The notes below the pieces were generated by a model. The model had not been told where the DNA came from, searched no databases, and saw nothing but the letters and a program-made list of their open reading frames with translations. From contig OZ024747.1 in NCBI GenBank assembly GCA_964016885.1, positions 7,130,001 to 7,194,000 of the forward strand: DNA of 64,000 bases, given 5' to 3'. The DNA comes from Eledone cirrhosa. Lineage: Eukaryota. The position numbers and the translations under genes are program-made. This document shows positions 11,729 through 58,109 of this stretch, piece by piece. How positions within the stretch are numbered: position 1 is the first letter of the stretch; each line of letters opens with the position of its first letter.

Positions 11729-11771
11729 ACTGAGCTGATGATGCGCATAAGGTGAAACATTTGTTCTCGGT
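11729..11771 (+). ncRNA. Minimal type-I hammerhead ribozyme motif (PLE pLTR)
   Basis: ACTGAG-CTGATGA-TGCGCATAAGGT-GAAA-CATTTG-TT-CTCGGT. Stem I ACTGAG/CTCGGT pairs, stem II is weak. Confidence 0.65.
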
Positions 11772-19278: not shown

Positions 19279-19425
19279 CTGAAGAGATCCTATTAAGGGT
19301 GAAAGCAGCGATTCTTTGCTTAAACTTTAATCTGTTATTTTAATAGATATTTGCTCTAGGGTTCCTATATATTTGATATATATTTATCCTTATCGAGCCC
19401 TCTTTGGATTTTAGTCTTCACGTTT
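19279..19425 (+). mobile_element. PLE pLTR fragment starting at a hammerhead core
   Basis: CTGAAGA-GATCC-TATTAA-GGGT-GAAA. Homologous to 38470-38683. Confidence 0.65.
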
Positions 19426-19433
19426 ATTTTCAT

Positions 19434-19500
<67 letters not shown>

Positions 19501-22219: not shown

Positions 22220-22700
22220 AAGGTTAGGGAGAAGAGTAAAATTTGGTTTAATCCGCCATTTTATCTAGATGACTTCACAAATATGGTTAGAATCATCCTG
22301 TCCCTAAATACGTGACACTTCTCAAAGAAACAGAAGTACCATAAACTCTTAAACCTCCATAATGAGTATCGTTTCCAATATTACACGTTACAGCAGCAGA
22401 AATCAGGCATCTACACAGAACCCCGCCCTCCCGTGCAACAGCTTGCAACTGCCGAACCTCTGCCAATTATTATCTGGGCGGTGAATCCTGCCTTTCAAAG
22501 GCTGTGGTCTCTAGAGCCACTCTCACACCACCAAATACTATACCGAGGAACTGTGTAGGTCTAACAGCCAATGAATTTTAAGATAGATTTTCCAAGCATA
22601 TATATATCTTTAGATTCCACTTTTCTGGCCAGTTTTATTTGGAAAGACGAAGACCAAGGAGATAATATCCCAATCATCATATAGAGCTTCCTTAATATGG
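22220..22700 (+). mobile_element. Decayed Penelope-like ORF C-terminus (linker plus GIY-YIG endonuclease)
   Basis: Frameshifted motifs in order: IWFNPPF, HF.K..KYHKL, CNCR, CLSKAVV.RA, VGLTANEF.DRFSKH, LASFIWK. Confidence 0.75.
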
Positions 22701-26507: not shown

Positions 26508-27464
26508 ACTAGACATGAAAAATGCGCAAGCTCAAAAGTGCCACAGAATGTTATAATAAACCTTCAAAAGTGTGGGACTAGAGTTGTTGCTAAAAAATAT
26601 TGTAATCATTATATATCGTACATTCTGTGGCATCCTTTATAAAAATAGCTTAAACCAACGAAGCCTTTATTTTTACGCTATTTCACTTAGTTAATTCTTA
26701 GAGTGTAACATATAAAAATATGATTTACAACTATAAAATAAATTAATTAATATAATAACAGAGCTGCGGAGCTGAAATTTAGGAAATAATGGAGTATCGG
26801 ATCCTGAGTTGGAGCCAGTCAATTTTTGGCCGACTCCGCAGCCCTGTATAATACATTTCATATTAAAGTTATTAATAAACCTATTTTACACTTCATGCAA
26901 ATTACCACGAGATATTGATATTAGATATAAGATACAGCGCAATATCTACAGCTGTAAAAGTACGAAAGCGAAGTAATAATAAGTGGCTTAAGGTAATTCC
27001 AATATGAAAGCTTGTAGTGATAAAAATTTGATAATGCAATACGATTGTTAATATTATAGTTCTATGAAAATGTAACAATAGATAACTAAATTATTTTACT
27101 ATTAGTATATTTAAGAAATTATCATTATAGATTTGATCGTTCATATAAGCATCATATTAAGTTTCAACACAATTATTTTGTTACTATGAGTATATGATAA
27201 TAATATTACGTAATTATTTATAGCTGTTATTACATTAAACATACATGTATTTATTTTTATATGTTACACTCTAAGAATTAACTAAGTGAAATAGCGTAAA
27301 AATAAAGGCTTCGTTGGTTTAAGCTATTTTTATAAAGGATGCCACAGAATGTACGATATATAATGATTACAATATTTTTTAGCAACAACTCTAGTCCCAC
27401 ACTTTTGAAGGTTTATTATAACATTCTGTGGCACTTTTGAGCTTGCGCATTTTTCATGTCTAGT
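26508..27464. repeat. 213-bp perfect inverted repeat pair (26508-26720 / 27252-27464) around a 531-bp spacer
   Basis: The arms read as exact reverse complements by eye. Termini ACTAG...CTAGT. Confidence 0.95.
26759..26846. mobile_element. 88-bp hAT-type MITE
   Basis: TIRs CAGAGCTGCGGAG / CTCCGCAGCCCTG. Flanks TATAATAA / TATAATAC match at 7 of 8 positions (TSD). Confidence 0.8.
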
Positions 27465-29250: not shown

Positions 29251-29330
29251 ATGATGATTTCTTTCGAATGAAACAGTTCTAGTCCTGTAGAAGCCATTTA
29301 TATATATAATTGAACTGAGTTAAAAATTCA
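29251..29330 (+). mobile_element. PLE pLTR fragment with degenerate hammerhead
   Basis: ATGATGA-TTTCTTTCGAAT-GAAA-CAGTTCTAGTCCTGTAGAAGCC. Same family as 49726-49857. Confidence 0.6.
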
Positions 29331-36533: not shown

Positions 36534-37876
36534 TGTGTGTGTCTGTTTGTATGTATGTGTGTCTGTGTGTTGCACATATATACATATACACACACAAGCT
36601 GCTGACAAAAAGAAAAAGACTGCAGTCTAACCCCGAGGCCTTATTTCATAACAAAATTAATTACACATGAATACATAACTCCGAATACATGTTTATTTGA
36701 GTCGTTTGACACCTCTCAGTCATAATGTATTTTTCTTATTGAAGGCGATACTCTAGTATGAGCTTATAATGGTTAAAACAAACCGAACTATTCTAGTAGA
36801 TAAAAAAGGGAGGAGCTCTGTTACCTTAGGCAGCTTAATTGTAGTTAAAGAAAAGCCTGGAAGGAATTAGCAGACGTTGTTGCCTGGAATGTGGCAGTGT
36901 GTGTGTGCGCATGTGTGTGTGCGTGTGCGTATACCTTTATAGAAGAGGGGTGGAGAAAGGGGAGATAAGTAGAAAAATGACAGCCATGCAAACAGATATG
37001 CTGATAGATAAATTGATAGATAAACAGATAGGTGTATAGATAGATAGATATTTGGAGTCAAATTGAGAGAGAAACACAGAACATTAAATAGCCAAAATCC
37101 TGCATACCTTTATGATTTTATATATTTGCATGCTTACTCTAACATACATATGTACTTCTGTGAGTTTTGTGTGTTCATATAAGTTTGTATATGTGTGTTT
37201 GAGTGAGCATATGTGTGTATTTCTTTGTGTTTGTGTGTACCGTACGTACATATAAATACAAATGATTATTTGTATGTGTAGACACATTTTGTTTATCTGC
37301 CACTCCCCTATTTACTCGAAAAGAAATAAAACCCCTACAAATATGGAGGAAAAATATATCAGATGATATATAAAGATAAGTGTCACTATCAAGCTGCCAT
37401 TACGACAATACATTTGGTGATAGTAAATTCCTCATTTAGCTAGCTCTCTTCCCCAAACCTGGCTTTCTACTTCTTGAAATATTTCAACCTTGAAGATCTG
37501 CCTCGACTATTCATCCGACATACAAGTTCAACTTACATTAAAGTACAGCACACACGTCTGAGATAAAATACCCCTAATCTACCCTCATTCAAACACAGAT
37601 ATTTGAGACTGCTTTGCAAACAGAAAATATGTCAGCCATACAATCGACCAGGCATATAAAAACAGATAGGATAAACAAAAAATACTCCAGTTTCTATAAT
37701 ACCATACTGTTCCCAATACGACGGGCCAGTACCTGTTGGAGTATTTTTCTATTATTATTATTGTTTTCTTGAGGGCGATGGATTGGCAGTATCGGTAGAA
37801 CGTCAGACGCCAGGCTTTCCAAGTACCAGTAATTCACTGAGGTAATTGCTGGCCTTGTGCCAAAAGTAGAAACAAT

Positions 37877-38057
37877 TATTTATTTGGTTCCTTTACCGGT
37901 TGGTTTCGCAGTTCTTCTGCTTTTCAAAAGTAGAGTTGAGATGGAGGGTCTGTGGTTTTTCTCACATCAGATGTGAGAAAAACCACAGACCCTCCATCTC
38001 AACTCTACTTTTGAAAAGCAGAAGAACTGCGAAACCGGTAAAGAAACCAAATAAATA
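37877..38057. repeat. Fold-back palindrome, about 90-bp arms and a 1-nt loop, with a hammerhead-like motif in each arm
   Basis: Centre CACATC-A-GATGTG at 37969. Arm contains TTGAAAA-GCAG-AAGAA-CTGC-GAAA-CCGGTA. Confidence 0.9.
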
Positions 38058-38163
38058 TATATATATATTTTTTTAAATAAGACTCAGTTGCATTTTCGAT
38101 TTCATCTTTTTTTCTTTATACTTTCACCTCGGTTATTTTTCATTTTGTAAAAAAAACCCTCAC

Positions 38164-38240
<77 letters not shown>

Positions 38241-38469
38241 TAAATTAGCGAGAATCGTATTTCAGCTCAGGAATTAACGAAAAACAACTTCCGAGATGTG
38301 TGGCAAGCGCTCGATGATTCATGTGAATCAGAGCTACAACATACGTTAAAGGCCAAACACACTGAGATGGTAGTTAAACTAATCATCCGCACGGTCAAAA
38401 AAACGACCAAGTAATTCGGGTCAAACAATAAAAGTATATGTGATTGATATATATATAGTAATAATAATA

Positions 38470-38676
38470 AATTTGAAGACTCAAATCCAAAGAGGATTAT
38501 CCAGATAAGGATAAATATATATCAAATATATAAGAACCGTAGAGCAAATATTTATTAAAATAACAGATTAAAGTTTAAGCAAAGAATCGCTGCTTTCACT
38601 CTTAACGGGATCTTCAGAAGATCCCGTTAAGGGTGAAAGCAACGATTCTTTGCTTAAACTTTAATCTGTTATTTTA

Positions 38677-38683
<7 letters not shown>
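38470..38683. mobile_element. PLE pLTR (minus strand) with fold-back palindrome 38549-38683 centred on the hammerhead core
   Basis: Centre CTTC-A-GAAG at 38616, 67-bp arms with 2 mismatches. Homologous to 19279-19425. Confidence 0.8.
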
Positions 38684-38729
<46 letters not shown>

Positions 38730-49725: not shown

Positions 49726-49857
49726 AATATAGAAAGGCTTCTACAGGTCTAGAACTGTTTCATTTGGTAGAAATCATCAGGTAGAAATAATTATTTGGCT
49801 TCCTGATGATTTCTACCAAATGTAACAGTTCTAGTCCTGTAGAAGCCTTTCTATATT
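49726..49857. mobile_element. Head-to-head inverted PLE pLTR pieces, each beginning at a hammerhead core
   Basis: 56-bp arms, 20-nt spacer. Minus arm reads CCTGATGA-TTT-CTACC-AAAT-GAAA-CAGTT; plus arm has GAAA changed to GTAA. Confidence 0.8.
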
Positions 49858-49869
49858 GAATATAAATTA

Positions 49870-50285
49870 AAAAACGGTTTAAATAATCACCTGTTCTATT
49901 GCTGTCACCTGTTCTGTTGCTGTTGCCGACGGTTTCACCAATCCAAAAATTGGAAATCCAGAGAATTTCCAATGACAAAACGTTGTATAGTGCTGCCAAT
50001 TTTAGTGGCAGTATCAGCAAGTTTATAATAAACAGCTCTTACTTGCGACCTGATTTTGCGTGTGTGTCATTTTAACGGCCTGACCGCATGCGTTAGGCAG
50101 GAAGCGAAATATTGACTTACTGTAAGACTAGCAACCTTATAGTATGGAAATAAGTTGTCTGAAGATCCAATTCTTTCCATTGGAAATTCTCTGGATTTCC
50201 AATTTTTGGATTGGTGAAACCGTCGGTAACAGCAATAGAACAGGTGACAGCAATAGAACAGGTGATTATTTAAATCGTTTTTTTT
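49870..50285. mobile_element. PLE pLTR with hammerhead (50154-50230 +) and an upstream inverted partial copy (49870-49974)
   Basis: GTTGT-CTGAAGA-T-CCAAT...ATTGG-T-GAAA-CC-GTC-GGTAAC. About 105-bp inverted arms. Confidence 0.75.
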
Positions 50286-50434
50286 TAAATTTATTTAGAG
50301 AATTGTTTGATAATTGCTTGCTCCGCTCTTTTTATATTGTTCTGGTATCTCAAATTGGTACCATCGAACCACAACTATTATAAACACCTTGCATATTTCT
50401 ATAGGTACCTAGTGCCTGTTCAAGTATCCATCCC

Positions 50435-50499
<65 letters not shown>

Positions 50500-55886: not shown

Positions 55887-56020
55887 AACGGAGGAAATAT
55901 GGTAAGGAACCAGGTGGACCATAACGCACCAAAGTACTCAATACTTAGGGTAGTAGAGTGGGTAATAGGAACGAGTAGGACCCCGACGGAATTAGCCGTC
56001 GGGGTCCTACTCGTTCCTAT
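55887..56020 (+). repeat. Short interspersed element ending in a perfect 25-bp hairpin (paralogs at 57931-58093 and 46832-46897)
   Basis: Shared ACCATAACGCAC.A.AGTACTCAATACTTAGGGTAGTAG. Hairpin arms 55965-55989 / 55996-56020. Confidence 0.8.
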
Positions 56021-57306: not shown

Positions 57307-57371
<65 letters not shown>

Positions 57372-57647
57372 GTGAAAAACCGGGAGGCCATATCAAAAGT
57401 TGGTAGAGCATTCAGTGCAAAGCACGAGTTCCATATAGAGTTCCATAACAGATTAACAAACCATACTTGAGAACACACTTTTCACTCAAAAGATTCTTCT
57501 GGTTTATTGTTAGAGTGAGACCGGAAGTATTTATGACTCATAAATACTTCCCTTCTCACTCTAACTATATAACTATACACAACTTGAGGAATTGTTCGGC
57601 TGAAACACGTGTTCTCAAGCATCGTTGTTAATCTGTTATGGAACTAA

Positions 57648-57932: not shown

Positions 57933-58109
57933 CAAGGAAGGTGTGGCAAGATACCATAACGCACTAGAGTACTCAATACTTAGGGTAGTAGAGTGGGTAA
58001 TAGGAAAAGAGCCAGGACCCCGCCGGCTGAGCTCCGGATCTAGCTGTCGAAATGGCCGGACCTCTGCCGTCGGTGTCCTAACTCTTTTCCTATATATATA
58101 TATATATAA

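Follow-up and report, generated by a model that had tools for sequence, protein, structure and literature searches.

Two near-perfect hairpins from the genome of Eledone cirrhosa, referred to as A and B, belong to two protein-coding, (TA)n-targeting Penelope-like elements (PLEs), of which they constitute the shortest class of insertions. We consider it probable, at roughly three chances in four, that such a hairpin represents the shortest PLE insertion made from two separately primed run-off cDNAs that were joined head to head. The fold points are sharply clustered and likely lie at the start of the element RNA and not at the ribozyme. The window is the whole stretch of 64,000 nucleotides that was analyzed (NCBI GenBank assembly GCA_964016885.1, contig OZ024747.1, positions 7,130,001 to 7,194,000 of the forward strand), and positions are counted from its first letter. 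The original prediction, made from the letters of this stretch, had read the two palindromes as non-autonomous Penelope-derived mini-elements that snap back at a hammerhead ribozyme.

Palindromes A and B are real and far beyond chance. Palindrome A spans 37877-38057, its inner 67 bp being free of mismatches with one 4-nt insertion farther out, whereas palindrome B spans 38548-38684 and has 68 bp arms with 2 mismatches. As a measure of chance, the window was resampled five times with an order-1 Markov model, which gave at most one 18-bp arm. The single-nucleotide loops (A37969 and A38616) had been predicted correctly, as had the TC-A-GA reading of both centres in the window. In long A copies the loop centre reads CC-A-GA, the TC in the window being contributed by the mirror arm. 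The borders had been drawn too narrowly, as A extends to the right up to 38170 and B to the left up to approximately 38456. Both right arms had been said to run into ATATAT, which is true for B, where the (TA)n tract follows directly, but the A tract at approximately 38057 is internal and not the end of A. The expected (TA)n targeting was supported. Both ends are located inside (TA)n, where a target-site duplication is indiscernible. The three further sites of the same layout also exist, namely the family C pair, 49869-50283, and 57439-57645. The inverted arm of A adjoins the 3' end of a common repeat at 37765-37876, a very common SINE-like piece with 158 matches, and the spacer between A and B (38240-38445) is another repeat with 20 matches. 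All features are listed in Table 1.

Table 1. Positions of hairpins A and B, their predicted ribozyme motifs and further inverted pairs in the window.
Feature	Position	Strand	Remarks
Element A inverted tail-less arm	37877..37968	-	outer ~60 nt absent in this copy
Element A loop base, putative transcription start (+1) of Neptune-like parent	37969	+	from DNA signatures
Element A sense arm (pLTR, +2 to tail-less end)	37970..38120	+	
Predicted minimal type I hammerhead of A, U3-A8 core variant	38008..38043	+	read from sequence
Element A tail	38121..38170	+	13 nt deleted in this copy; ~60 nt elsewhere
(TA)n target at A tail end	38171..38236	.	
Element B tail, ~87 nt	38456..38547	-	short (TA)n before tail at 38448-38457
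Element B tail-bearing arm	38548..38615	-	
Element B loop base	38616	.	putative RNA start 6 nt upstream; centre of interrupted palindrome TTC-A-GAA of the parent
Hammerhead-shaped motif of B	38615..38660	+	U4 -> A, T.T closing pair in stem II, U at cut position
Element B tail-less arm	38617..38684	+	
(TA)n target at B tail-less end	38685..38725	.	
Single tail-bearing B arm	19285..19458	+	start near B hot spot
Family C inverted pair	49726..49857	.	56 bp arms, 20-nt spacer; tail/no-tail layout; predicted canonical-core hammerhead
Family D	49869..50439	+	inverted arm 49869-49974 (106 bp arms, pairs to 50283) and sense copy with tail to 50439
Older inverted pair E	57369..57645	.	tail-like left end

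A fold-back artefact of the assembly or the library is an extremely improbable source of these structures. The arms diverge independently (142 one-arm variants in 79 B pairs) and the ends are biologically precise, being tail or tail-less and lying in (TA)n. Furthermore, contigs of the public run X1 show inverted joints converging on the same hot spot, whereby X1 may be the source sample and thus non-independent. It would fit an artefact that, among the contigs listed, none bridges a centre with 31 letters on each side.

In agreement with the predicted PLE origin, the arms of both families are the 3' pLTR ends of elements with RT and GIY-YIG, and longer copies run upstream into ORFs. The A parent ORF (L248) matches the Pfam family GIY-YIG with an E value of 4.7e-07, above the cut-off, and RVT_1 with an E value of 1.4e-06, 1 bit under the cut-off. 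It contains a GLKFTP-type N-terminal motif, a CxxxxCxxC linker, and a GIY-YIG part with CCHH-type residues; assigned by its motifs, A appears to be Neptune-like, with Nematis being possible as well. The B parent ORFs (L092, L103) carry RT and GIY-YIG-type features. No Pfam match was obtained for the B parent ORF, whose Atlas matches at 0.95-0.98 include RVT_1 and GIY-YIG clusters. Its RT core aligns to the RT core of A with an E value of 1e-04, and 143 homologues were found at E <= 1e-10. The B protein has the motifs RLRWRAF (RMRWKAF in homologues), SDKT, CNCRNRVDC (a CxCX5C linker), CDLC, and CKH, but no CCHH. Judged by its motifs B appears to be Hydra-like, as the RW-type motif, DKT, CxCX5C, CxxC/CxH, the missing CCHH, and the (TA)n target are all found. 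The B unit has a size of ~3.2 kb, and its pLTRs are arranged as a partial tandem in L103 and inverted in L101 and L092, the tail being optional. A MITE/TIR transposon or a parvovirus-like flip-flop terminus was also considered as origin of the hairpins and rejected, since parent ORFs were found and the two ends are always unlike (tail versus tail-less). A decayed RT fragment at 22241-22617 resembles the B protein with 38% identity.

Copies were counted and collected by exact sequence patterns. Exact 31-32-mers of the arms near the tail-less end occur 12,331 times for A and 33,585 times for B in the 3.0 Gb genome, and hairpins with a short spacer (<=18 nt) amount to 1,247 for A and 1,342 for B, the exact B one-base-loop 29-mer alone occurring 492 times. 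The junction sample consisted of the first 100 exact matches per family on contig C1 (99 distinct ones for B), anchored near the tail-less end. At one locus (L002, G000:C27:4048349-4049305) the A hairpin core has been amplified as a 130-bp tandem array.

As anticipated, the fold points are non-random and cluster in both families. Of the 79 A arms that reach +15, 50 start at -4 to +15 of the loop base, which corresponds to 50 arm starts within 20 nt compared to 8 in the flanking 108 nt (binomial p 2e-32); 26 of 85 B arms start at -13 to +2, and the adjoining 30 nt on the upstream side contain no arm start (26 arm starts within 16 nt compared to 14 in 60 nt, binomial p 2e-9), whereby both hot-spot windows were picked post hoc, after the data had been seen, and 8 of the 59 B read-through arms lie inside another mobile element and thus are non-independent insertions. 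The latter element is a Helitron-like repeat carrying a B pLTR fragment (L068, L153, L154, L157, L205, and others), the ends of which (5' TC, 3' hairpin and CTAG) we take to be Helitron-like. One A row (L133) was excluded, as its reference contained its own partner arm. Deep apparent breakpoints (-53, -93, and -213 for B; -229/-239 and -446 for A) turned out to be reference mismatches or captured copies.

The position of the hot spots points to the start of the RNA. A TATAWA sequence is located exactly 30 nt upstream of the A loop base in 34 of 39 long A copies, and family C shows it at the same -30 spacing in 6 of 8 copies, several C folds starting at that point. A TATA box is absent in 84 of 86 long B copies. 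The main stops of the B arms are -6 and -3, and among the first 50 B hairpins with a short spacer, 17 have a non-parental G or C just outside position -6, the remaining ones being 18 one-base loops and 15 other joints, 2 of which clearly go past -6. The first 100 non-T bases at the extra-base position of B comprised 56 G, 23 A, and 21 C. Among 30 B loci that were examined, 2 were read-through and 19 of the 28 junctions had a G, and at 12 distinct B loci the extra G is templated by neither the partner nor the flank. For L1, a 5' untemplated G has been taken as a sign of cap copying in the available text of PMC9341517, and by this precedent the extra G at the B start is likely a cap signature. 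The extra base is weaker in A, where the first 100 non-C bases were 46 G, 33 T, and 21 A and the extra G is cleanly untemplated in ~4-5 of the 26 junction copies examined; the two commonest A joints can equally be read as cDNAs reaching position -1. From these DNA signatures, the putative transcription start sites would be the loop base (+1) in A and position -6 in B. Penelope transcription is described as starting within its own pLTR (PMC2377424, as far as the accessible part goes). An ~8-fold depth step at the putative B start in run X7 (2-fold in X1) was left unused, as contigs show neither starts nor levels.

It is highly improbable that the hot spot reflects an RT stop at a structure or a splice acceptor and not an RNA start. 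Such a reading would draw on the CAG contained in both centres, on the B pyrimidine tract, which ends in CAG, and on the introns that PLE pLTRs can contain according to the consulted parts of PMC2377424 and PMC4209133. However, the preferred B stops are upstream of the AG and come with the extra G, no common upstream exon is found after the break, and the TATA spacing in A and C matches a start.

With regard to the ribozymes, hammerhead-type motifs are indeed present, but canonical cores were not found in A or B. The motif predicted for A has the core TTGAAAA (38011-38017), a 4-bp stem II, GAAA, and a predicted cut after 38040 (after A), with a stem I of 3 bp here and 4 bp in the other subfamily. 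With its 3-8 pair, the closing pair G10.1-C11.1, and the palindromic stem III ACCGGT, the putative fold shows the features of minimal type I hammerheads, which are described, like the U3-A8 core variant, in the available text of PMC4209133. This core is kept in 179 of 188 arms. The CAGAAGA of A was rejected as ribozyme core, since it represents stem II of the U3-A8 fold. A scan with the canonical CTGANGA motif gave no hammerhead in palindromes A or B, a scan that misses the U3-A8 motif of A. In B, the fold had been placed inside a CTGA core, which did not hold: the + strand centre reads CAGA, CTGA occurs solely on the mirror strand, and the core of 90 of 93 long B copies is CAGAAGA instead of CTGA, so that it does not count as a canonical hammerhead. 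Three stems can be drawn for B, but the predicted minimum-energy fold is not a hammerhead, and the B hairpin is devoid of the 5' strand of stem I. A B-like hammerhead layout with an intact core is seen in family C and in Hydra-1_Obim. CAGAAGA...GAAA, at the place where CUGA is expected, occurs in B (38615-38660) and, by eye, in E (~57490-57520, minus strand), which could be either decayed ribozymes or a U4A variant. The type-I hammerheads that were to be expected were not detected by Rfam in long copies of A or B nor in family C, and there was none among the 150 of 426 Rfam matches listed for the window. Single-strand folding gave no significant z-scores. Further hammerhead-like cores are located at 11735 (+), 11944 (-), and 6775 (-), the first two being close to each other on opposite strands.

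The idea that the palindromes turn at the ribozyme is not supported. In A, the predicted core is located 42 nt downstream of the fold and the predicted cut 71 nt away from it; in B, the fold is 39 nt from the predicted cut. The B fold overlaps the core because the ribozyme-like fold of B (stem I) begins at the putative RNA start. In family C, the hammerhead's stem I starts 30 nt downstream of the TATA box.

The junctions bear on how the mirror arm arises. Partnered arms consist of one tail-bearing and one tail-less arm in 45 of 45 A and 38 of 38 B classifiable cases and never of like with like, whereby 9 A and 2 B partnered arms were unclassifiable and a pair can be counted twice. The two arms of a pair are related to each other: A arm pairs agree at sites 37/38 in 34 of 36 cases and at site 115 in 49 of 50 cases, placing them in the same subfamily, and the shared variant fraction of paired arms is 0.45 compared to 0.13 for random pairs. 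Common subfamily alleles would also result from snap-back or self-priming, as suggested in the original prediction, where a single cDNA (or antisense RNA) would fold back close to the ribozyme and thereby serve as template for the mirror arm. The B and C folds at or beside the core speak for it too, and antisense RNA self-priming is the one published model that we found for PLE inverted repeats, proposed by Arkhipova et al. 2013 as their reading of head-to-head palindromic junctions (PMC3846280, in its available part). However, if the first cDNA served as template, the mirror arm could neither exceed it nor fail to overlap with it. Counted by distinct junction types, the tail-less arm reaches deeper (farther upstream) in 20 of 28 for B and 10 of 29 for A, and the arms are without any shared sequence in 10 of the B and 1 of the A types, the tail arm ending before the tail-less arm begins. 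Moreover, snap-back predicts solely a T loop when read from the tail, barring later recombination, but both bases were seen (20 T and 11 A in B; 14 T and 10 A in A). Once inserted, the two arms could recombine with each other, which could flip the loop base and shift spacer sequence from one arm to the other. The extra G on the sense strand at the putative start and the distance of the A fold from the core also disagree with snap-back, which we consider unlikely. Deeper tail-less arms together with both loop-base orientations fit two cDNAs joined head to head and not a snap-back.

For the two-cDNA origin we propose the following course. Both cut strands of the (TA)n target would prime separate cDNAs on the element RNA, one starting at the tail end and the other one at the tail-less site 60-90 nt farther upstream. 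These priming sites would be located within the pLTR at a distance of just 70-215 nt downstream from the transcription start, so that each cDNA would run off the capped 5' end of the RNA, and the cDNA 3' ends would then be joined via microhomology or near-blunt end joining. In the commonest B joint, the ends might anneal at TTC-T-GAA and the T.T mismatch might be repaired either way, giving an A or a T loop. The 9-nt joint class of B (10 of 50 hairpins) would fit a TC microhomology that requires the extra base. The first 50 A hairpins include 19 one-base loops, 12 four-base joints, and 6 perfect AT joints. The parts of this account that we infer are the transcription start, the cap copying, the two primings, and the joining chemistry.

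The original prediction had further suggested that the hairpins propagate as a class of their own. If so, they or a subset of them would be non-autonomous mini-elements that undergo transcription and self-cleavage and are copied as a whole, which in our view is quite unlikely. Each family does have ~1,250-1,340 short-spacer hairpins, identical junctions recur, and family D resembles an ORF-less tandem unit. However, recurrent junctions are expected from microhomology at one hot spot, and the hairpin junctions are heterogeneous. The hairpins are without the TATA box of A and without the initiator-like first six bases and stem I of B, and their duplex of 68-150 bp would be expected to out-compete the ribozyme fold. 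In a comparison of 93 short with 40 long A arms and 135 short with 85 long B arms, alleles were common to short and long copies, with all common A alleles being present in both (sites 37/38: 44/93 versus 17/40). For two tail alleles of B, short copies deviate in frequency from long ones (15/59 versus 1/30, p 0.009, and 4/59 versus 10/30, p 0.004, with ~37 sites tested), which would favour separate propagation, but no clear hairpin-only subfamily, i.e., a lineage of its own with diagnostic alleles, was found among the short and long A and B copies. Thus, the A and B hairpins are probably dead ends that do not spread on their own.

Family D is a better candidate than A and B for a non-autonomous retrozyme-like unit. 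It forms ~390-bp direct tandems with the tail before the body, a CTGAAGA core, and tail/tail-less ends (L345-L368), and a first look gave 1,629 candidates. No adjacent PLE ORF was found in 25 loci with 1.5 kb flanks, which were searched with the A and B proteins only. Family C has 51 motif matches in 1.1 Mb of overlapping loci and also occurs at 29252-29305 of the window and at L138, L155, and L321; no parent ORF was found for C, nor for pair E, which has 74% arms at 57439-57645 and an inner 1-nt-loop palindrome at 57505-57569. The short hairpins at 55965-56020 and 58000-58093, which have the same motif before and (TA)n after them (43 and 31 matches in the loci examined), are possibly a further family of the same layout. 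A perfect 213-bp inverted repeat with a 531-nt spacer is located at 26508-27464.

Taken more broadly, it seems somewhat more plausible than its opposite that PLE integration in general is an obligate twin priming from two fixed sites on capped sense RNA, in which starts in the 5' pLTR would yield strong-stop-like run-off cDNAs and hence hairpins; the junctions would then map the transcription start of each family to the base, and the antisense self-priming model would be replaced. The formation of PLE inverted repeats and one-sided tails is stated to be open in the accessible part of PMC8557442, and the junction statistics favour the twin-priming run-off model for this open step of PLE transposition. 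Among titles and abstract beginnings, with subscription journals outside the coverage, no publication was found that links the inverted junctions of PLEs with a run-off at the capped start. At least two PLE clades have left young junctions in this genome, numbering tens of thousands. In element A, the fold point is apart from the ribozyme and linked to the TATA box, and B has a likely cap signature, which together make the two-cDNA model directly testable. Apart from that, hairpins of this kind can be confused with MITEs or with microRNA precursors; the match of A to mir-548 in Rfam amounts to 70.5 bits, under the family cut-off.

In comparison to known systems, A and B are new families of the known PLE insertion architecture at its shortest. 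An EN+ PLE insertion is described as a pLTR with an adjacent inverted, 5'-truncated copy and an optional tail at one end (PMC8557442; PMC3846280, available parts). Such units share with A and B the head-to-head inverted pLTR, the junction palindrome, the one-end tail, the microsatellite target, and the pLTR hammerhead, but their tails are given as 30-40 nt compared to 60-90 nt in A and B. Furthermore, many A and B arms stop at one point, resulting in stand-alone hairpins, whereas neither a start-site hot spot nor a cap G is part of the published description in its available portion. The A parent resembles the Neptune clade in the GLKFTP-type motif, the CxxxxCxxC linker, the GIY-YIG with CCHH-type residues, and the microsatellite target. 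The B parent has in common with the Hydra clade (Hydra-1_Obim; PMC8557442, available text) the RW-type motif, DKT, CxCX5C, CxxC, CxH, the missing CCHH, and the (TA)n target, and with Hydra-1_Obim, as far as it is described there, the long-stem-III hammerhead layout with U at the cut site; it differs from that family in the N-terminus, in the pLTR words, and in the U4 -> A exchange of the core. Non-LTR retrozymes are likewise short, PLE-related, and hammerhead-bearing, but in the accessible descriptions (bioRxiv 10.64898/2026.07.22.740005; PMC7229834) they are tandem direct repeats, to which family D is closer, whereas the A and B hairpins derive from coding elements, of which they are inverted stubs. 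The in vitro work on Poseidon PAc agrees with our proposal in that both strands are nicked and extended, synthesis has two internal start sites, one at each boundary of the tail, and ribozyme cleavage is not needed; it differs in that, within the available text, inverted junctions are not addressed and the start site is the same for both strands, which leaves the strict rule of one tail-bearing and one tail-less arm unexplained (PMC11167929). The proposal also shares two-strand priming and inversion with L1. A further feature in common with L1 is an extra G marking the copied cap, as described in the consulted part of PMC9341517. A and B differ from L1 in that the second priming site is fixed and the cDNAs usually overlap, giving rise to a palindrome. 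In the twin priming known from L1, the two target strands prime on the RNA and thereby produce an inversion.
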